Source: Chitinophaga pinensis (GTDB lineage Bacteria; Bacteroidota; Bacteroidia; NS11-12g; UBA9320). From it: a DNA stretch of 64,000 nt. Made by a program: the position numbers and the translations under genes. How positions within the stretch are numbered: the stretch's first letter is position 1; every line of letters begins with the position of its first letter. Of this stretch, positions 237 to 54,776 are shown piece after piece. The stretch is from the NCBI GenBank assembly GCA_945897885.1, contig CAMDGU010000002.1, positions 18,307 through 82,306 of the forward strand. Reading direction: 5' to 3'. The notes beneath the pieces are model-generated. The model did not search any database. It was not told the origin of the DNA and saw only the letters and a list, made by a program, of their open reading frames with translations.

Positions 237-3200
237 ATGAGTAAAATAAAAACATACCTTTTCATCATTAATCTTTTACTAATGGGAGGTACTCTATTTT
301 CTCAGACGAAAAAATTTAATATTCAAACATCGTTTCCATCTGCTGTAACAGTTTGCGGAAAAACAGATTCCTTGGTATTTGAAATTAGAAACATTTCTTC
401 TTCTTCCGTCAATACAGTTTATCTAACTTTAGATCTTCCCCTAGGGTGCAATTATAAATCATCGAGTTTTAAAGGAAATGGAGTTAGCGAATCTAATATT
501 AGCAATCTTAATGATCCTATATTTAAACTATCTGATTTTTCCTTGGCCGGTTATTTAAGATTCTCAATAAAAATAAATTCGAATTGTGATTTGCAAACGC
601 TAATTAGTAAAGGAGCATCTGCTACGGCTGATTTACTTTTTTCATACACTGGAGGAAATGAAAAACACACCACGGGGGCATTAAACGTTAATATTCCAAA
701 TATTTTAATAAATACCATATCAAATCAAGTAAAAAATGCTTACTTAGGAAATAAGTTTTTTCGTGAAATCAGTATTAAAAATACCGGTAAAGGCGGAGCA
801 TCAACTTGCTTATTTTTTAGAATAAATGGAAATGGATTAAAGATTACCACTTCCAGAAGTAAAGACAAATACTCAGGCGATTCTACCATTTCCAAACTTG
901 ATTCGATTGATTTTAAACTAATTGGAAATAAAGATATTTATTTTGATGCCGGTGAAGAAGTTAGAATTACGGATACTGCTCGGGTAGTAATATGTTTCAA
1001 TCTTACTTCTGTATATACCGTAAGGTTTGGATGTAATTCTACCTATTGTAATACCTCTTCAAAAAACGCAATTGTCAATTTAGATCCTTTTACAGAAGGG
1101 TTAACCATAATTCCAAAGACATCAGTAAATTGGTGTTTTGATCGAAACAAACCTACTTACAATGAAATAATAGTTATAAATAAATCAAATAAATCTATAA
1201 ATAACACTTATGTAAACATTCTTCAATCCTATAATGGGGGATTTTATAATAGCCAAATTTCTGCTATTGATACATCTTCTATAGTAGTTACAGCAGGCAA
1301 GTACGGAACCGAATTAAATAAGAAGAAACTTAACTTTAGAAATAATAGCAGCAGCGGTTACTTTTCATGCTTAGGTTCTGTCCCTATCGGAGGATTTACT
1401 CTATCATTGGGCTCTTTAATGGTTGGTGATACCATTTATGTAAAATGGCAGTCTTATTCCTGCTTACCAAATATTTGCAACGCAACATTAACTGCCCATC
1501 GTTGGCGCTATTCAGCTACTTATTCTGACACTTGTGGAAATAACTATAGTGTGGCAGAAAACTGGGGTAGTGGCGGGGGAATTCAATATATGAGCGCCAT
1601 ACCTTGGCTTCCTACTGATATTGTTTCTGGAGTTCCTGAAAAACTTAATTATACAATTTCATCTATTTCACTTTTTCCTATCACTAGCAAGGCAAAGTTT
1701 TCAATAAAACTAACCCTACAAAGTGGTTTAAAGCACAGCTTAAAACCTGATGATATTAAGTTTACTGATATATATGGAAATCAATGGAAACCATATTCAG
1801 TAAAAGCAAGTTCGGGTGATGTTTTGGCCTATTTTTACCAACCCGGCATAAGTTTGGTAAAAGCTGAATTGGATATTCTTATTGAGTCGGATTGCAAAGC
1901 CTCCTCCCCTTCTGGATTAAAAAATTTCGGATTTACAATATTTTATGCACCCGATACTACTTGCAACTATACTTCTGACTTTCAATTGTATTGCACCTCC
2001 AGTCAAGTAAAAGTTCATTGTACCAAATCATGCAGCAACGGAGGTATGTTATTTAAGGCATTTAGTGTAAAAAGAAAAAGTTTAGGAAAACCAGATAATA
2101 ATAATGATGGGCAGCCTGACGCTACAGGGACAATTGACCTAGCTAAAATAAAAACGAACAGATCATTTTTATACGATACTCTCACCACATTTTACTCAGG
2201 TATTGTAATGGTTTCCGGAAGTACCAATGTGTTTTTTGATGGCAGAATAAAAACGTCAATTCTCAATGGTAATTTACTAAAACCAATAATGGCTACCCTT
2301 ACTGTTTATAGAAATAAAAAAGTAAGATATACCTGCAATAAAATCCAATTCTCAAGCTACACATCAGGCACAACCCGATATTGCGAAGTTGATTTAAATA
2401 TTAACTCTTCACGAACGGCAGGTTGTGGAAGTATGAGTAATTATTTCTTTCTTGCCTCTGATAGTGTAGTGGTAAGTGTTGATTATTTATACAATACAAA
2501 TGTAGGGAGTGCTTCTGCTGATGCTTTTTTTGATAATCCTGAATTTTACATAAGCACGACTCCAAATCCAACTGCAAGCCAAAAACTTCAATGCGATACA
2601 TTTTCAGGACGACATATTCTTTTAGGTTCATACTTTACAAATTGGTATACAGAAAACTACACATCAAGTTCATGCAATCCTGTTACTTTGTACAATAGTT
2701 ATTACTTTAGTGCAGGTAATTGTTGTGATAATTATGCAGGAGGTAATCCATTTCCATACGAATACCGTAGTTTCAATTACTTAGATAAAATTAAAGTTAC
2801 CTTACCAAAAGGGTATACGTTTTCTAGTGCGGCCATTTATTACTACCGTTCTGCCGGCACATCAAATTACACATCACATTACGCTTCCAATCTAAAACCA
2901 ATCATAAAAAATACCGACACCTTAATATTCAATTTAGATACTCTTTTTAATGCAACCAAAGGTATTTTTAAGCGAAGTGATGAAGGTTACCAGGGAACTT
3001 TAGTGTTAAATCTTACTCCAAAATGTAATGCAGCAATTAATACTTACGAATCTGTTAAATATTCATCCTATTTCAAATGGTCAAATGTAAATGCGACTGA
3101 CTTGATAGAAAACTATGAAGATAATCTTAAATTTGACCACCCAGGTGTTTTAATTTCTGCTATCAACACCTTAAGCTCTTCAAAAAAAGATACCTTTTCT

Positions 3201-6200
3201 TGGGATATAATCGTATCAAATACTAAAAGTGGAAGTTCGATTACTAATTTATGGCTTTCCAATTCATCACCCAAAAATGCCAAAGTTCTGGCAGTTAAAG
3301 ATTTGTTAACCGGTAATAACTTATCAGTAAAAAATGGAATATTCAAAGCAGGAGTTTTATCATCCACTGCTACCCGCTCTTTTAGAATTTTAGCTTCCAG
3401 TACGAATTGTAAACTAGATAGTTTTAAAATAGCTGTGGGCTGGAACTGTGACAGCTATCCAGACAGTTTGGAAGCTTATTCCTGTAAAAATTTATTAAAT
3501 TATGTTAATCTTATTTTAAGTCCCATTCCTCCCTTAATAATAAGCACCCTTATTGAAGATACAGCCCAAACAGACGTTTGTACCAATCGAAATTACAAGG
3601 TAATTATTGCCAATGTTGATGAGGACAATATTTATGGACTTAAACTAAAAGTTACTATTCCTGTAGGAACTAAAATTGTTGATACCGGAATGTACTATTC
3701 TTTTCCTTATGGCAGTAAATTATTGAAATTACCTAAACCGATTTTAGTTTCTGGAAGTACATATGAATGGGCTTTGAGTGATAGTTTAAGTGCTTTAAAA
3801 AATGGTTTGGAAAAAGTATCCGATACTTTAAAAAGCAGAATCCGTTTGCAGTTTTTATTAGAAACCAATTGTCAGATTACAGCAGGAGCTTTTGTTTCAA
3901 TTATGCCTGATGGGAAAATTGGATGTGGGGAACCTGTAAAAAGGCTAGGATTTACAGGCCAGCCTATAAAAATTAAAGGGGTTAATAATCCTTATTATTC
4001 AATCATTACCTTAACCCCGGATAGCATAAATTTATGTAACCCTTCGGTAGCTTTTAAATCAAAAATAATTTATTTAGGGCCCACCAATACCTTTGATAAT
4101 GATTCCTTAATACTTATAATGCCTATAGGTTTTGAGCCGGATACAGCGTCCTTAAAAACAATAAAAATTAACGGGCGAGGTGTTGTAAAAGATGTGAGTG
4201 GAGAAAAACGCTGGCTATGGTCTATCCCAAAAGGATTATTGCCGGGCGATTCATCAATGATAGAATTTAAGCTTAAAATTACCAATAAGGCTCCCTCCTG
4301 TGGTTCTGAATTATTTACAATACAGTCACTTACCAAGAAAAAAGCGTATTGCGTAAAATCGAATGACAGTTGTGATATAAATGTGGCAACAGGTAGTTTT
4401 TTTAAAGCTTTTAAACTTGACCGAGCTGAACCAATCATCAAATTAATTAGTTCTGTTTCCTCCAATTCTGGTGACACAGGAGAAATAATAGATATTGCTT
4501 TTAAAGTTACCAATAATAAAAAAACGATTGACACAGCCATTAATTCTACTTTTTATTTAATAGTAGATAAAAACCAGAATAATAAGTATGACAAATCTGA
4601 TTTATTGATTAAAAAATTTACTAAAACCAAAGGTTGGATTACAAGCCAGCAAATTAATTTTTCTTTCAAGGGTTTTGTAAACAACTCTGACATTTGTCGG
4701 TTGGTTATTGTTTCAGATTCAAATAATTGTCAATGTCTTAGAAATATACTTCCATTACTAAATATTCAATTAAAAAATGCAGGAAGAGATACAAGTTATT
4801 GTTCTAATAATTCAGTATTTGTTGGACTTGATTCTATTAAAAAATATAAATACGAATGGTTGCCAACAGATTATTTAAGCTTGCCATATCAATCAAAATC
4901 CATCTATAAAAAAGCTAATTTTTCTAATTTAGACCTCACCCAAACCTATATTTTAAAAACGACTCGTCCGGGTGGGTGCAAAACTTATGACACAGCGGTA
5001 ATAAAGGCTAAATCTTATATATACTTGCCTAAATTAAAAGATACTTCAGCTATCTGTGAAGGAGGCATTATTCAAATAGGAGACACCGCTAAGGGAGGTA
5101 AAGGTGCACTTTCATATAGTTGGACTCCCAATTCAGGATTATCCTCATACAGCAAAATGGTTGTTAACGCAAATCCGAAAATTTCAACAAAATTTTTTAT
5201 TAAAATAAGTGACCAAAACAATTGCTCAATAAAAGATTCAATATATTTAAAAGTTGCAAAACTTCCTTTGGTAAAGATTGGAAATATTGGCTCATGCGAA
5301 AAGCGAAACATTCAATTTCTTGATAGAAGTAATTATTTTAGTCAACAAAAAGGTAATGCTATTTGGCGAATTGATTTTAATACAATTACACAGACTGACC
5401 CAACGTTTGTATTTGACACTATTGGTTTATACTTCGTTAGATTAATTGCATCAAATCAATACGGATGTAAGGATTCAGGCTATAAATATATAAGAATAAA
5501 TGGCAATCCTATCGTTTCAAATCTCAAGATTAATCAATGCTCGGGTGATTCTGTAATATTAACCGATAAATCAAAAGTGGCTCTTATAGGAATAAAAACT
5601 GTTACGTGGCGATTTGCAGCCGATTCGATTATTGGAAAAGTAGTCTCAAAGATTTTTACAACAAAAGGAAATTACAAATTCACACAAATTGTTAAAAGTG
5701 ATTCCGGTTGTATTAGTTATTTAGAAGATTCATTAATACTTTATGATAAACCCAAAGCCGGTATTTCTATTATTGGTAAATGTTTAAACGACACCATACT
5801 ATTTTCAGACAATTCCAAATTCAGTGTTAACGATTCAATTAGTATTTATCACTGGGAAATTGAAGATAAGAAATTTTTTGGGAAACAGGCCAAACTAAAG
5901 TTTGATACCACAGGTAGGTATAACGTTGCACTGAGAATAAACACTCTTAAAGGGTGTTCTGATTCATTTAAGAAATCATTTATTATGAACACCTTCCCTA
6001 ATGTATCTTTTGGCATTTCAAATTATTGTCCCTATGATACCATCAAATTATCAAACTCTACCACTCTATCTAAAGGAAGCATAAAAAAATATGAGTGGAA
6101 TATTGGTAATCTTTATAATTCAAATTTAAAATCACCGGTTATTGATCCATTAAAGGAAGGTAATTATACAATAAAACTAAAAGCTATTTCTGATTCATTA

Positions 6201-7641: not shown

Positions 7642-7717
<76 letters not shown>

Positions 7718-7720
7718 CAC

Positions 7721-7748
7721 GAAAGCCGTCTTAAAGGTGGCTTTTTTT
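7721..7748 (+). terminator. Rho-independent terminator hairpin plus T-run after tRNA-Gly
   Basis: Stem 7721-7730 / 7736-7745 (GAAAGCCGTC ... GGTGGCTTTT, with G-U wobbles) and loop TTAAA, followed by T7. Confidence 0.45.
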
Positions 7749-7788
7749 GTAAGTAAGTCTCAATACTTACAACATCCAATCCTAAGTT

Positions 7789-7872
7789 ACCCGGGTGGTG
7801 GAATCGGTAGACACGCAGGACTTAAAATCCTGTGGCTTTGCGGCTGTACGGGTTCAAGTCCCGTCCCGGGTA
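7789..7872 (+). tRNA. tRNA-Leu (anticodon TAA), long variable arm, CCA not encoded
   Basis: Acceptor ACCCGGG/CCCGGGT, D-arm GTGGAATCGGTAGAC, anticodon stem CAGGA/TCCTG with loop CTTAAAA, long variable arm, T-arm ACGGGTTCAAGTCCCGT, discriminator A. Confidence 0.85.
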
Positions 7873-8041
7873 CATATTGAACGCTAAAATTCAACCTATT
7901 AACGTAAACCGAAAAACCTTTTCGAAAAAAGTGGTAAAAACTGTGTTTGGTTTTCTCCAGGACGAGACAGAAAAAAGAAATACAATTATTAAATGCCTTT
8001 GTCGTTCTGATATTATAACTGAAATTTGCAACCTATAAAAA

Positions 8042-17896: not shown

Positions 17897-18656
17897 CTAA
17901 TCAAACGTTTTACTTAAACCTATACCAAATGTAAAGGGCTGGGTAACTATGATTTCATCACCGGCTGTGGGTTTTGTTGAATTTAATATAAAGGAAAGGC
18001 CGCCATAAATATCAATATTTATAACATTTGTTTTTAGACGCCCCATAATGAAGGGATCTAAGAACAGATAGGTTTTTTTAACCATTGGCTGCGAAAAACC
18101 AACGGGTTTGGAAGGTTCTACTTTGAAAAAATTTTCGTAGGTTAATCGAGGAATAAAATAAAATCCTCCGTTTTTACCACCATACCCAACAGAAGGTTGC
18201 AAATAAAATCTTGCACTTTGTAAATCTATATCCAAAGCATCAAATACATTAATATCAGTGGGATTGAATAAAATTGTAAATAAATGTCCTTGCGAAAAAC
18301 CTCCGCCACCAAGTAATTGCATCTGTCCTTTTTCTCCAAATTTGGCATTATAGCCCATACCTGCACCCGCAAAAAAAGTTTTGTAGGGTCTGTTGTGATT
18401 ATTTGTGTCTAAACTATTTTCTTCTAGCCAACTTAATGCACCAGACACAGTTCCTGTAAAAAAAATATTGCTATCAATGGCATACCAACCTGAAATTTGA
18501 GCTTTTGAAAAACCCAAAGTAACCTGCCCTCCAAGGGAGCTCTCCTTTACTTCAGCTATTACCGGATAATTAGGGTAATACACATAAGTGCATGAATTAG
18601 CACCAATGAGCAAAAACAAAACAAACAGGGTATTTAGTATTTTTTTTATAACTCAT
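17897..18656 (-). pseudogene. Putative outer-membrane lipoprotein gene with a frameshift in an 8-nt poly-A tract inside the signal peptide
   Basis: ATG at 18656 reads MSYKK then shifts frame. Removing one A from the A8 run (plus-strand T8 at 18640-18647) gives MSYKKILNTLFVLFLLIGANSCTYVYYPNYP..., a classical lipoprotein signal continuous with the 240-aa ORF-track protein. The ORF-track start at 18619 is a TTG. Confidence 0.65.
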
Positions 18657-45033: not shown

Positions 45034-46100
45034 GGACTGTTAAAAAGCCTTACAAAAATGAACCAATAGGGTTCTGAGGCTTTTAGAAAAAAAATCAATA
45101 AGATTTACGACCCCTCATGGGGAGAGGTTGAATCTAATTGACCTTCAAAATTTATTTTACTGTTACCAATAATTCTTGAATCTGATAAAGGATATATTGC
45201 ATTCCTTTACTCCTATTGCTCTTTAAGAAATGGATGGTATGAAATTAATGAACAGAACGGACCGAAAGTTTTGTTTTCATATTTCAAAATTACCTGCCAT
45301 TTTAAGTCAAATACACCCCTATTTTAAGATATTGAAGTGGAGCAAATTAAAATGCATTTAAATGGCAAGTTAAACCGTTACTAAGAGCATCATAGAAATT
45401 ATTTAGAAAGTAACCTTGGTTTATTTGAAGTAAAATCTAGGAATAACAAGGGCCGGTCCATAAAAAAGCAAAGCAAACAGATAAGAAGTACCCAATGAAA
45501 TTGATGAAACGATTGACACATTTATACAATCTAAATCAACGTTAAATTCGCAATCCTTAATTCCGGCAATTTGAGTAAAATATAACCGAATAACGCTTGT
45601 AAGCGGATTAAGTTCTGAGCGACTAACCATTGAATTGAACTCAGAATTTACAAGAAAAGACACCCATTTTTGTTACAAAAAACTGGTGATAGCCGAAGTA
45701 AAACAAGACAAAAAACAAAACTCTCTTTTTTAAAATACCATCAAAGTAAACAATACCCGCTAAGGCTCCGTAAGCAAATATGCTATGAAAATAGCTATGA
45801 CCTATGACGTGAAACAAAAAAAATTTAAAGAAAAATTAAAACCAATATAGCCATTGATAGCCACCATACTTTTACAAGCCATTGAGTAAGTACCTATTGA
45901 TTTAGTAATGATGGCTCTCCAGAAACTATTAGCAAAAATAGGTTTCCGTTTTGTTGTTCTTTCTGACTTGATTTTTTTGTCACTTTTTTTCTCAAGAAAA
46001 AAAGTGAGACCTAAAGATTCCAACAGACAAGTCCATATTAAAGATTGGATTAATTATTTATAAAAAACATAAGATAGTTTTTACTTGAGGCAGAAACAGT

Positions 46101-51450: not shown

Positions 51451-51909
51451 TTATTCATAACGCTCTAATTCCCGTTTTATATCTTTCGATTTTAGGTCTT
51501 CTCGTTTATCAAAGGTTTTCTTTCCTTTGGCCAATGCAATCTGAATTTTGGCATAACCACTTTCAGAAAAGAATAACTCAACAGGAATAAGGGTGTATCC
51601 TTTATCCTTAAGCTTGTCTGTAATTTTTTTAATTTCTTGTTTTCCAAGTAAAAGCACTCTATTATTAAGTGGAATGTGCTGCATGAATCCGGCATTCTTA
51701 AATTCAGATATGTGCATATTTTTGATAACAACCTTACCATTATCCAGTATACCGTAAGCATCACTGATATTAGCATGCCCTGCTCGTATAGATTTCACTT
51801 CGGTTCCTTTGAGAATAATACCTGCAATAAATTTTGCTTCAAGATGAAACTCAAAAGCTGCTTTTTTATTCTTTATTGAAATTGTTTTTGGTTTATTATC
51901 CTTCGCCAC
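51451..51909 (-). CDS. smpB: SsrA-binding protein SmpB
   Basis: Full-length similarity to the SmpB pattern (KTISIKNKKAAFEFHLEAKFIAGIILKGTEVKSIR...). GTG start. Overlaps the upstream thioesterase gene by 14 nt. Confidence 0.9.
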   Translation of the reverse strand: MAKDNKPKTISIKNKKAAFEFHLEAKFIAGIILKGTEVKSIRAGHANISDAYGILDNGKVVIKNMHISEFKNAGFMQHIPLNNRVLLLGKQEIKKITDKLKDKGYTLIPVELFFSESGYAKIQIALAKGKKTFDKREDLKSKDIKRELERYE

Positions 51910-52297
51910 GTATGCCTTTAAATAATTGGTTTATTTTTTCTTTTTTTAAAATTTTTTGACCTGTTCGTCCTTTGGCTATTAGTCGGTCGTTTACTAAAGC
52001 TTTAAATTGACAAATTATCGTATTTCCTTTCTGCTCTTCAAATATACTTGTATAATTTACCATTTCGCCAACAAAGGCAGGACTTTTATGCTCTACTTCT
52101 AAAAATGTTCCAATCCCCTCTTCATCGTCTTCTTTTAAATCAATAACAAAAAGACGGCAAACCCATTCGGCATTCCGCCCCAAAACAAAGGTGGACAATA
52201 CCGCATGAACATTGCCCGAATCAAAAGTTGCCATATCTTCAGGGCCAACTAATTGGTCAAATGTTTTTGTATCACCTCTTTTATAAAGGTTTCTCAT
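51896..52297 (-). CDS. Hotdog-fold thioesterase family protein
   Basis: 133 aa. Pattern HAVLSTFVLGRNAEWVCRLF...GEMVNYTSIFEEQKGNTIICQFKALVNDRLIAKG fits 4HBT/FlK-like thioesterases. Confidence 0.55.
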   Translation of the reverse strand: MRNLYKRGDTKTFDQLVGPEDMATFDSGNVHAVLSTFVLGRNAEWVCRLFVIDLKEDDEEGIGTFLEVEHKSPAFVGEMVNYTSIFEEQKGNTIICQFKALVNDRLIAKGRTGQKILKKEKINQLFKGIRGEG

Positions 52298-52308
52298 AAA
52301 ATATTCTT

Positions 52309-52316
52309 CAAAAATA
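52309..52316 (-). promoter_or_regulatory. Candidate -7 promoter element (TATTTTTG on the minus strand) 11 nt upstream of the thioesterase ATG
   Basis: Plus-strand CAAAAATA at 52309-52316. Implies a very short leader. Confidence 0.3.
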
Positions 52317-52324
52317 AGCTATTT

Positions 52325-52359
52325 AAAAAAAACAGGCCCGGATTCCCATCCAAGCCTGT
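52325..52359 (-). terminator. Rho-independent terminator for minus-strand transcripts (ACAGGC...GCCTGT stem followed by U8)
   Basis: Plus strand reads AAAAAAAACAGGCCCGGATTCCCATCCAAGCCTGT, so the minus strand has a 6-bp stem with a 16-nt loop, then TTTTTTTT. Confidence 0.45.
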
Positions 52360-52380
52360 ATATTCTACTAACTATAAAAT

Positions 52381-52415
52381 ATTATAAACCACAGTTTACA
52401 CTGTGGATTATAAAC
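52381..52415. promoter_or_regulatory. Palindrome CCACAGT-ttac-ACTGTGG flanked by the direct repeat ATTATAAAC on each side
   Basis: Read directly. Lies 84-118 nt upstream of the thioesterase-smpB start. Confidence 0.35.
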
Positions 52416-52620
52416 GAAAGAAATTGTTTAAATAAAACCCAATGATTTTAAAATTTAAGTCAATTTATTTTTTGATTTATCAAATTTACTTAAAATTTTT
52501 AAAAGAAAAAATTAAAATATTTTTGGATTAAATTTTTGACGTTTAAGTTACAAAACTAAAATCAACCAAGATTTAAAAAACTAGAATGTTCTGAAATAAC
52601 CTATTTTGTTATTTTCTTAT

Positions 52621-52895
52621 TTAGTAGATATTTACTTTGGAAAGCAACTCCTCCCTTTTTTGATTGGTGATAGGGATTTTATTGCCATTTATGATCATGA
52701 ATTCTGAATTGATAGCATTCATATAATCCAGATTAACAACATAACTTCAGTGAGGTCGGAAGAAAACATCTTTACTGAAATTTTCAATAAAATCATTTAG
52801 TGATGCTCTTACATTAATTTTTTTGGAGGTTGTATTTACTTTTACCTATACGTCATCGCTTTCCAAATAAAAGATATCACTCGTTTTTACTTTAT
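52621..52895 (-). pseudogene. LytTR DNA-binding domain remnant of a LytTR-family response regulator: frameshift relative to the receiver domain plus two in-frame stops (TAG at 52846-52848, TGA at 52747-52749)
   Basis: Minus-strand translation KIKDGYYFHKVKTSDIFYLESDDV*VKVNTTSKKINVRASLNDFIENFSKDVFFRPH*SYVVNLDYMNAINSEFMIINGNKIPITNQKREELLSKVNIY matches the LytTR consensus throughout, including FFR-HRSY-VNL with the TGA at the Arg position. Confidence 0.7.
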
Positions 52896-53335
52896 GAAAA
52901 TAATACCCGTCTTTGATCTTTATTAACGTAACTGTCCATTATATCCATTGGCTTGGTAGCCTTTGAAAAATTGTCTAAACAAATTTCGATGGAGCTATAT
53001 AAATCAGATCTATTAAACGGTTTTACTAAATAGGTTGGTGGAAATACTTTTTTTGCTCTTTCGATGGTATTTTTATCAGAACTTGATGTCAGAAAAATAA
53101 AGGGAATTTTAAAATTTATATTAATTGCCTGAGCTACATCAATACCATCCTTTTCACCATCCAATTGTATATCAAGAATTACTAAATCAGGTTTCTCAGT
53201 TTCTATCATTATCAAAGCTTCTTCATAATTAGTTGCAGGAACGGTGGTTTCATAACCAAGTTCATTCAGAATGATGTGAATATTTCGTGATAATATTTCA
53301 TCATCTTCAACGATCCCAATTTTTACTTTATCCAT
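52892..53335 (-). CDS. Response-regulator receiver (REC) domain ORF; the intact N-terminal half of the decayed LytTR-family regulator
   Basis: MDKVKIGIVEDDEILSRN...LVILDIQLDGEKDGIDVA...LTSSSD...LVKPF carries the phospho-acceptor Asp and other REC motifs. Ends 3 codons into the shifted LytTR frame. Confidence 0.8.
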   Translation of the reverse strand: MDKVKIGIVEDDEILSRNIHIILNELGYETTVPATNYEEALIMIETEKPDLVILDIQLDGEKDGIDVAQAININFKIPFIFLTSSSDKNTIERAKKVFPPTYLVKPFNRSDLYSSIEICLDNFSKATKPMDIMDSYVNKDQRRVLFS

Positions 53336-53565
53336 TGAATTAATAATAGTTAGTTTATCAATATTTACCAGTTAAGTTTATGCAAAGCATATGGCATTTA
53401 TAGTAAGTTTGGTAAATATGAGTGTTTAATTGAAAATTGAAACTAATTCTAATTACATGATATTGTTTTTACAATAGTATGATAAAATAAACAACAGTTA
53501 CCCTACTATAAAAATAGTTAACCAAAACACATTATAATTTATTGAAATCTATTAATTGAGTTATG

Positions 53566-53573
53566 TATTTTTG
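53566..53573 (+). promoter_or_regulatory. Candidate -7 promoter element TAttTTTG immediately upstream of dnaN (6 nt before the ATG)
   Basis: TATTTTTG at 53566-53573; ATG at 53580. Confidence 0.3.
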
Positions 53574-53579
53574 CCCATT

Positions 53580-54698
53580 ATGAAATTTATTGCCAATACA
53601 ACGTCATTAGTTGAGCACTTACAAAAAATAAGTGGAACACTTGTTAGTAAACCAACGCTTCCTATTATTGAAAATTTTCTTTTTACAATTGTTAAAAATA
53701 ATTTGAGCATAACGAGTACTGATTTGGAAACCAGTATGACTACCAATATGAATATTGAGTCGGATGGTTCAATTTCAGTAGCTGTTCCTTCAAGGCTTAC
53801 AATTGAAACTTTAAAATCATTGCCTAACCAACCGGTAACGTTTACCATTGATGAAAAAACCTTTCAGGTTCAAATTCAATCAGAGTTTGGTAATTATAAA
53901 CTTGCGGGACAACCGGGAAAAGATTTTCCTAAGTTGCCTGAAACTGAATCAGAATCGTCGTTTACAATACCATCTGAAACGCTGCAAAACTGTATTGCAA
54001 AAACAATTTTTGCTACTGGTAACGACGAACTAAGATTAAACCTTACAGGTGTTTTTGTGGAGCTAGAGGAAAATAAAATAACATTTGTGGCAACAGATGC
54101 AAATCGCTTGGTAAAAGTGGAACGAACCGATGTAAAACCTGGTGTTAAACATAGTTTTATTTTACCTAAAAAGGCCCTTAACCTATTAAAATCAAGTTTA
54201 ATGGGAGCTTCCATTCCAGTTCAATTGGATTATAACCGTTCTAATGCATTTTTCTCATTTGGAGATACCAAATTGGTATGCCGGTTTATTGATGAAAAAT
54301 ATCCTGATTACAATGCGGTAATCCCTCAAGAAAATCCCAATGTATTAATCATTAACCGTGAAGATTTACACAATTCAGTCAAACGTATTTCTATATACTC
54401 CAATAAATCAACTCATCAAATACGTTTAAAACTTGCCGGAAGTGAAATGAGTATTTCGGCAGAAGATTTTGATTTAAGCAATGAAGCGATTGAAAAAATT
54501 GCTTGTGATTATTCAGGTGAAGACATTGAAATAGGCTTTAATTCAAAACTTTTACTTGAATTACTTGGCAGTCTTGATATTGACGTGGTAAAGTTTGAAA
54601 TGAGCACACCAAACAGAGCCGGCATTATTTTGCCTAATGAAAAAGAAAAAGAAGAGGCTATGCTGATGCTTATTATGCCTATGATGTTGAATAATTAA
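53580..54698 (+). CDS. dnaN: DNA polymerase III beta subunit (sliding clamp)
   Basis: MKFIANTTSLVEHLQKISGTLVSKPTLPIIENFLF... and the three-domain clamp layout. About 372 aa from ATG 53580. Confidence 0.9.
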   Translation: MKFIANTTSLVEHLQKISGTLVSKPTLPIIENFLFTIVKNNLSITSTDLETSMTTNMNIESDGSISVAVPSRLTIETLKSLPNQPVTFTIDEKTFQVQIQSEFGNYKLAGQPGKDFPKLPETESESSFTIPSETLQNCIAKTIFATGNDELRLNLTGVFVELEENKITFVATDANRLVKVERTDVKPGVKHSFILPKKALNLLKSSLMGASIPVQLDYNRSNAFFSFGDTKLVCRFIDEKYPDYNAVIPQENPNVLIINREDLHNSVKRISIYSNKSTHQIRLKLAGSEMSISAEDFDLSNEAIEKIACDYSGEDIEIGFNSKLLLELLGSLDIDVVKFEMSTPNRAGIILPNEKEKEEAMLMLIMPMMLNN

Positions 54699-54776
54699 GA
54701 AAACAAATACGTTGTGGTATTCTAAATTTATCCAACCAAATCTAAAAAAATAAGTAAGTTTGCAGCATTACAGCAC

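Follow-up and report, generated by a model that had tools for sequence, protein, structure and literature searches.

A LytR/AgrA-type regulator gene that has probably lost its DNA-binding output in one clade of uncultured Bacteroidota

Introduction

When an open reading frame (ORF) encoding an isolated receiver (REC) domain is followed, in another frame, by a LytTR DNA-binding domain interrupted by stop codons, is the locus a dead regulator gene, the source of a working single-domain regulator or an error of the sequence? This question is raised by a locus within a 64,000-nucleotide stretch of DNA (hereafter the window; positions 18,307 to 82,306 of contig CAMDGU010000002.1, assembly GCA_945897885.1), whose host lineage is an uncultured, AT-rich (35% GC) member of the Bacteroidota. 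A previous interpretation made from the letters of the window by themselves (the sequence-only reading) had proposed a regulator gene decayed by one frameshift and two nonsense codons. Based on comparison with public contigs and proteins, designated here by L and P numbers, respectively, we consider it about 85% probable that the locus holds the remains of an orphan REC-LytTR (LytR/AgrA-type) regulator gene, whose DNA-binding output would have been lost in one Bacteroidota clade.

Results

A receiver ORF and an out-of-frame LytTR remnant

The locus consists of the following elements, all but the last on the minus strand:

53335..52892, minus strand: receiver (REC) ORF of 147 aa, from the ORF list (ATG at 53335, TAA at 52892-52894)
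52914..52621, minus strand: LytTR domain remnant in the ancestral frame, recognised by PF04397 and colinear with intact orthologues (ancestral stop TAA at 52621-52623)
52914..52918, minus strand: 11-bp deletion (TATATTTTTAT lost), from alignments to L024 and L025
52846..52848, minus strand: nonsense codon TAG replacing TAT at Tyr167 (L024 and L002 have TAT, L025-L028 have T)
52747..52749, minus strand: nonsense codon TGA replacing AGA at Arg200 of the FFRxHRS motif, from alignment to intact orthologues
53336..53555, no strand assigned: divergent intergenic region common to the regulator and dnaN, the presumed regulator promoter region, from sequence comparison

The 147-aa ORF comprises a REC domain, a linker and a frameshifted tail of seven residues (QRRVLFS). 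It matches Pfam family PF00072 (Response_reg) with an E value of 4.4e-20 over model positions 2-110 of 111, a coverage indicating that the receiver fold is complete within the ORF. Its phospho-acceptor pocket is complete as well, and D11, D55, T83, K105 and P106 are all retained, each of them invariant (121/121) in the alignment of 121 full-length homologues on which we scored residue conservation. The frame adjacent to the REC ORF reads, in a three-frame translation, ...KDGYYFHKVKTSDIFYLESDDV, stop, VKVNTTSKKINVRASLNDFIENFSKDVFFRPH, stop, SYVVNLDYMNAINSEFMIINGNKIPITNQKREELLSKVNIY, stop, and with both internal stops masked as X this remnant matches PF04397 (LytTR) with an E value of 8e-16 over model positions 3-95 of 98. 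The matches to the two halves are far beyond chance. Translation and Pfam searches hence bear out the sequence-only reading in its main architecture, i.e. a REC-only ORF and an out-of-frame LytTR remnant that carries two nonsense codons besides the lesion breaking the frame, and the TAG (52846-52848) and TGA (52747-52749) codons lie exactly where it had placed them.

An intact C-terminal LytTR domain in one polypeptide with REC is absent at the window locus, the domain lying in the other frame, lacking its first strand and carrying both TAG and TGA. The locus is a descendant of the LytTR family without working membership. A search of the regulator against NCBIfam reached no equivalog cut-off, which identifies a generic LytR/AgrA-type regulator that is the orthologue of no named or characterised member. 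Public labels of the 147-aa ORF are 'response regulator LytT' or 'OmpR family regulator'; the exact window protein is public as P0121, found on three contigs, and P0012 differs from it solely by E69.

The window is otherwise densely coding, with ORFs of up to 2435 aa. TAG ends 5 of its 38 long ORFs and TGA likewise 5 of 38, as expected for the standard genetic code, and this normal usage, together with the dense coding, argues against an altered genetic code and against general genome decay.

Nature of the three lesions

The junction between the two halves, previously described as a frameshift, is indeed the point at which the frame breaks; the lesion is, however, a clean 11-bp deletion that takes away the first beta-strand of the LytTR domain, and not a shift by a single base. 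It falls between GAT (Asp140) and CAAAGAC, its placement within 52914-52918 being ambiguous because of AT microhomology at the edges. The deletion both shifts the frame and costs the codons for Y-I-F-I; of these residues, F143 does not vary (121/121), and I144 is shared by 109 of the 121 homologues. The 60 bp on either side of it are identical between the window and L025.

The two nonsense codons affect similarly conserved residues. Tyr167 is a tyrosine in all 121 homologues, and Arg200 is an arginine in 110 of them. That TGA occupies a conserved arginine position was correctly recognised from the sequence, whereas the proposed ancestral codon CGA was not: the Arg200 codon is AGA in every intact orthologue examined, so that the change was A>T. 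In an alignment to solved AgrA domains, Arg200 is placed opposite the asparagine of the AgrA CHNS motif, which we take to be the base-contacting N201 of AgrA. A corresponding placement of Tyr167 on AgrA was dropped, since the alignment is unreliable in this part.

The remnant had also been called an almost perfect LytTR domain, a description that does not hold. Many of its residues are rare or unseen among the 121 homologues (D165, N171, N178, M217, N228 and Y241), and some of these replacements, H165D and K228N, hit conserved positions. As a consequence of the LytTR lesions, the product would no longer bind DNA, and the regulon would be cut off from its non-adjacent kinase.

Intact orthologues occupy the syntenic site

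Using a conceptually repaired protein as query, we retrieved hundreds of full-length REC + LytTR relatives of ~241 aa, the best protein cluster being 83% identical; the 147-aa ORF was also retrieved as a public cluster. The contig of the best match (L024) shares the gene order of the window, namely lpxD, dnaN and then, divergently, the regulator, a FlK-like thioesterase gene, smpB and a gene for a 923-aa T9SS-tailed protein. An intact 241-aa REC + LytTR gene lies between dnaN and the FlK-like/smpB genes in L024, L025-L028 and L055, and in L001 and L002 the intact orthologue is followed by the FlK-like gene. These intact orthologues are annotated as REC + LytTR regulators. The nearest named homologues (~50% identity) belong to Ferruginibacter, Hanamia and other Bacteroidota MAGs, by whose names the host lineage would probably fall within the Chitinophagales.

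The 90% cluster of the best match also contains an intact protein that is much closer, P0124, which is encoded on contigs L025-L028. In 6.6 kb of flanking sequence, the window is 97.5% identical to L025, which suggests that the intact-allele sister lineage and the dead clade are roughly the same species. Over the bin 53541..53345, within the presumed promoter region, the window shows only seven differences from the intact-allele lineage, and a second dead subtype is identical there. A sigma-70 promoter scan gave no excess over the shuffled expectation, the sigma-70 model being unsuited to Bacteroidota.

In the 6 kb flanking each side of the dead and the intact loci, no kinase domain is on record, which implies that the regulator was already an orphan before its death. 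The lack of an adjacent histidine kinase, reported before, is accordingly correct as a fact, but it is the ancestral state and not a trait of decay, since intact orthologues are equally kinase-free.

Two further observations were made on the contigs with intact genes. Between lpxD and dnaN, the intact sister contigs L025, L026 and L028 carry a ~3.3-kb insert (1293-4637) encoding an HTH_3 protein and three or four ORFs without Pfam matches, which is absent from the window (site 54699-54776) and from all dead-allele contigs; the regulator is therefore not the only difference between the two clades. In L037 (Ga0049085_10012865), whose orthologue is 99% identical to that of L002, one extra A in an A-run at codon 24 (position ~1570) breaks the frame. 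Since there is no other damage and only this one contig is affected, the extra A probably reflects an error in sequencing the homopolymer, as opposed to a second, independent loss of the gene.

The lesions are fixed in the dead clade

Dozens of contigs encode the 147-aa ORF exactly or nearly so. For the dead clade we examined 28 of them (L014-L023, L029-L036 and L056-L065), originating from SRA/Logan, JGI, ENA and NCBI samples. The 11-bp deletion is present in 28/28, TAG and TGA are found in every contig reaching those sites, and no polymorphism was seen at the lesion sites among the 28 contigs. The first ten contigs differ from the window at only three positions over 52400-53600. At least three dead subtypes can be distinguished: one with D121, one with Y121, in which V93 may or may not be present, and one with T143 in the tail. 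The lesions are fixed in the clade, and the locus is a genuine population-wide pseudogene. The proposal of genuine pseudogenisation is in this way substantiated from two sides, by intact 241-aa orthologues at the syntenic site and by the unchanged recurrence of the lesions in 28 independent contigs.

We also looked for intermediate alleles carrying the deletion only or the nonsense codons only, and for a donor of the divergent patch described below; metagenome and genome scans, in collections that do not contain the dead clade itself, returned none of these and only intact relatives of at most 76% identity. Likewise, the 90% protein clusters contain only the 241-aa and the 147/144/105-aa forms, and no 166-aa intermediate.

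Single contigs show peculiarities of their own. At window position 53131 the window encodes Q69 (CAG), whereas 28/28 other dead-allele contigs and all intact alleles encode E69 (GAG), a strain-specific, nonsynonymous difference. In L030, dnaN is called as two pieces of 83 and 259 aa (4627-5756), as compared to 372-380 aa in all other contigs; this split is likely an assembly error and illustrates the contrast between a contig-specific artefact and the universal lesions of the regulator.

Fate of the receiver half

Most likely, the 147-aa REC ORF is a relic as yet spared from lesions, and its product, if made, could still accept phosphate, without any output. A functional stand-alone receiver under selection, acting e.g. 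as a phosphate sink or as a protein-protein regulator, is a possibility that we regard as rather unlikely, even though several observations would agree with it. The ORF has kept all invariant residues, its start codon and a near-unchanged upstream region, and regulators consisting of a single domain are well known as a class (e.g. MrrA, PMC5964349). Moreover, the REC half carries no disabling lesion in 29 sequences, as opposed to three in the 294-nt remnant, a difference that would be hardly informative if the deletion is recent. The number of changes on the dead lineage does not exceed that on the intact lineage (4 versus 4), and the replacements are conservative (K109R) or at variable positions; nevertheless, the changes on the dead lineage comprise four nonsynonymous ones (K109R, Y121D, A93V and E69Q) against a single synonymous one.

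Within the dead clade, REC is polymorphic at 3/417 sites, whereas the remnant is polymorphic at 4/271 and the spacer at 7/206 sites (11/477 combined), a difference that is not significant, and 3/3 of the REC polymorphisms are nonsynonymous, as neutrality predicts. The low divergence of REC equals the flanking background and is in addition confounded by the mosaic ancestry of the locus (see below), as REC may itself be young or recombined. Overall, the rate and polymorphism data, which are small in number, fit both constraint and neutrality, and neither divergence nor within-clade polymorphism (only three REC sites) provided positive evidence for ongoing selection on the REC half. The suggestion of the sequence-only reading that this half may still serve as an orphan regulator thus finds no clear backing in the sequences. 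The contrast between REC and LytTR on the stem (2 versus 19 changes) was also considered as a sign of selection on REC and was discarded, since synonymous sites are elevated 5-fold in LytTR and the change-point lies off the deletion.

Relaxed constraint in the LytTR part

With L001 and L002 as outgroups, the LytTR part shows 7 synonymous and 14 nonsynonymous changes on the window branch versus 14 and 3 on the intact L024 branch (Fisher p 0.0035), and REC shows 13 and 8 versus 11 and 6 (Fisher p 1.0), in a test that is rough because synonymous sites are saturated towards these outgroups. When the window is compared with L025 using L024 as outgroup, 19 LytTR changes are window-derived and 7 L025-derived, and the spacer behaves in the same manner (27 versus 13); REC, with its four changes on either side, and the flanking genes are symmetrical. 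Constraint is relaxed in the disabled LytTR part. AT-biased decay was rejected as the cause of this excess, the 19 derived changes consisting, according to the site table, of 8 GC>AT, 6 AT>GC and 5 neutral ones.

An island of high divergence around the nonsense codons

The substitutions separating the window from the intact allele are concentrated in one segment:

52858..52411, minus strand: high-divergence island of 448 bp, extending over the variable spacer and all but the 5' quarter of the LytTR remnant, with both nonsense codons

Compared with the closest intact allele (L025), 84 of 440 positions (19%) differ inside the island versus 107 of 5612 (1.9%) outside, and a two-rate scan gave a 2dLL of 208, a value as high being obtained in 0 of 200 permutations. 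In the same comparison, dS amounts to 0.21 (10/54) in LytTR and to 0.037 (3/84) in REC, 0.043-0.057 in dnaN, the FlK-like gene, smpB and the 923-aa gene, and 0.004 in lpxD; the five flanking genes pooled have 55 synonymous differences over 1250 sites (~0.044). The LytTR value differs from that of the flanks (Fisher p 2e-4) and from that of REC (p 0.0055). The variable spacer downstream of the remnant is about 28% different.

Decay in situ without recombination, the divergence of the island reflecting nothing other than relaxed selection after the death of the gene, would explain why the excess lies mainly on the dead lineage, both in LytTR and in the spacer, and why most derived residues are unique to that lineage. 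Such a history is nonetheless improbable. Relaxation cannot raise synonymous divergence, which is 0.21 against ~0.04 in REC and the flanks; the branch of the intact lineage is likewise elevated inside the island; and the spacer upstream of the regulator has diverged by only ~3%. Furthermore, the change-point does not coincide with the deletion, which lies 57 bp 5' of the start of the island, and 52855-52914 contains zero substitutions, where ~8 would be expected at the island coding rate of 13%.

Because synonymous sites are raised too, the data, amounting to ~30 coding differences and one close intact lineage, point to mosaic ancestry through recombination beyond mere relaxed selection. The simplest reading would be that the separation of the island from the intact allele dates back four to five times further than that of the surrounding DNA, although a local mutation hotspot would produce the same pattern. 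Such a mosaic could have arisen in two ways. In the first, an old dead allele has had its surroundings, REC among them, homogenised at a later time through recombination with strains carrying the intact allele; in the second, the patch was imported from an unsampled relative whose gene was already dead. Since the deletion is located in 'young' sequence, this lesion was probably the last of the three to arise, an order deduced from the position of the change-point.

More speculatively, and with a low probability in our judgement, the dead and intact alleles might form an old polymorphism within one recombining species, the island being the footprint of divergent selection and the REC-only product having been retained as a new receiver. 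If this were true, loss would be favoured in one ecotype and retention in the other, and the birth of a single-domain regulator by domain loss would have been captured. Taken together, we favour the pseudogene of mosaic ancestry: the locus is a real but ordinary pseudogene with one oddity, namely the much greater age of its dead part as compared to the adjacent DNA.

Sequencing error and recoding

The notion that the gene is really intact and that the lesions are sequencing or assembly errors carries practically no weight, since the same deletion, TAG and TGA occur in 28 contigs assembled independently from different runs and with different pipelines, two of the lesions are base substitutions and the third is an 11-bp deletion in non-homopolymer sequence, the remnant also has a nonsynonymous excess, and no evidence for an error was found at the regulator locus, a likely error being seen elsewhere (the extra A of L037). 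Because contigs from different samples show identical lesions, assembly error, for which the sequence-only reading had turned to raw reads, could be dismissed without them.

Equally negligible is the production of a full-length regulator by programmed frameshifting combined with readthrough of the stop codons or their recoding (as Sec, as Pyl or through an altered code), for which the colinearity of the two halves is the sole support: the deletion takes four codons including the invariant F143 and calls for a shift beyond the reach of standard +1/-1 slippage, readthrough would be required at two stop codons of different kinds, TAG and TGA each terminate 5/38 long ORFs of the window, and conserved positions further downstream are degraded too.

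Other features of the window

Between the remnant and the FlK-like gene (ATG at 52297), the minus strand contains a conserved structured element of ~90 nt (52324-52414), which ends only ~27 nt before the FlK-like/smpB genes. It combines a palindromic hairpin (CCACAGTGTAAACTGTGG) with an invariant core (TATAATATTTTATAGTTAGTAGAAT) and a second hairpin of 12 bp, after which comes T8, and has a fold energy of -38.6 kcal/mol (z -7.2). The element is identical in L025 and ~97% identical in L024, despite ~30% divergence in the rest of the spacer, and also occurs in L002, L037 and L001, with three pairs kept through changes on both sides. At a relaxed threshold, an Rfam search of 52200-53600 gave only a chance match (E 0.23), leaving the element without an Rfam family; from its sequence and predicted fold it could be a candidate small RNA or a terminator-type leader.

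The FlK-like thioesterase gene itself (51896-52297, minus strand), which adjoins the island, shows 10 nonsynonymous and 4 synonymous differences from L025 (dN/dS 0.65), and its long-term dN/dS versus L024 is 0.10. Elsewhere in the window, a 1.07-kb segment without a long ORF (45034-46100) lies between a UvrD/Rep-like helicase gene and a gene for an 830-aa T9SS-tailed protein; six-frame translation of this segment yielded nothing protein-like, and no tRNA or Rfam match was detected in it. The only RNA genes detected in the window are those for tRNA-Gly(GCC) and tRNA-Leu(TAA) at 7642-7873, following the 2435-aa ORF.

Discussion

In terms of annotation, the 147-aa ORF should carry a flag as the 5' fragment of a pseudogene. 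The locus provides a well-replicated case of lineage-specific loss of signalling output in a free-living uncultured bacterium, and, as both alleles are available at ~97.5% flank identity, a comparison of the two clades could show the consequences of this loss. On a small scale, the old segment surrounding the lesions offers a concrete example in which the influence of recombination on the persistence of pseudogenes could be studied. The current understanding of two-component systems is left unchanged by these findings.

The ancestral gene shares with the LytR/AgrA (LytTR) family (AgrA, LytR/LytT, BtsR/YpdB and AlgR) the REC domain with a C-terminal LytTR domain, the FFRxHRS..VN signature and a length of ~240 aa. 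The points of difference are the broken LytTR half in the window and the lack of a kinase next to the gene, in dead and intact lineages alike.

That LytTR regulators can be inactivated naturally is already well documented, and the window locus is a further example, with an unusually high replication in environmental data. In ribotype 078 of Clostridioides difficile, cdtR, which encodes an orphan LytTR-family regulator and is full-length elsewhere, carries a natural premature stop; truncated CdtR was judged likely non-functional and cdtR treated as a pseudogene (PMC4944984). The likeness lies in an orphan LytTR regulator that is dead in one lineage and full-length in another. In contrast to cdtR, where a single stop was found in a pathogen with a known target (binary toxin) and experimental complementation, the window locus has three lesions and mosaic ancestry and belongs to an uncultured environmental bacterium. 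Similarly, spontaneous loss-of-function variants of agr/agrA are reported to be common in staphylococci, with functional and defective lineages coexisting within species (PMC7479134). Such variants are usually young single mutations that recur in hosts, whereas the window allele is old, fixed in its clade and present in many samples.

In myxobacteria, comparisons within genera revealed frameshifts that strip response regulators of their output domains, with 'gene loss in progress' considered as an alternative to a true change of family (PMC4603909). Drawn from isolate genomes, that catalogue has no population replication, whereas the window allele is replicated in 28 contigs and its remnant is still readable. 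Finally, the 147-aa ORF resembles the single-domain regulators CheY, Spo0F, DivK and MrrA (PMC5964349) in its complete receiver domain and phospho-acceptor pocket. These proteins are conserved under selection and have known partners, whereas the window ORF has an evident origin by decay and a function that is a candidate only.
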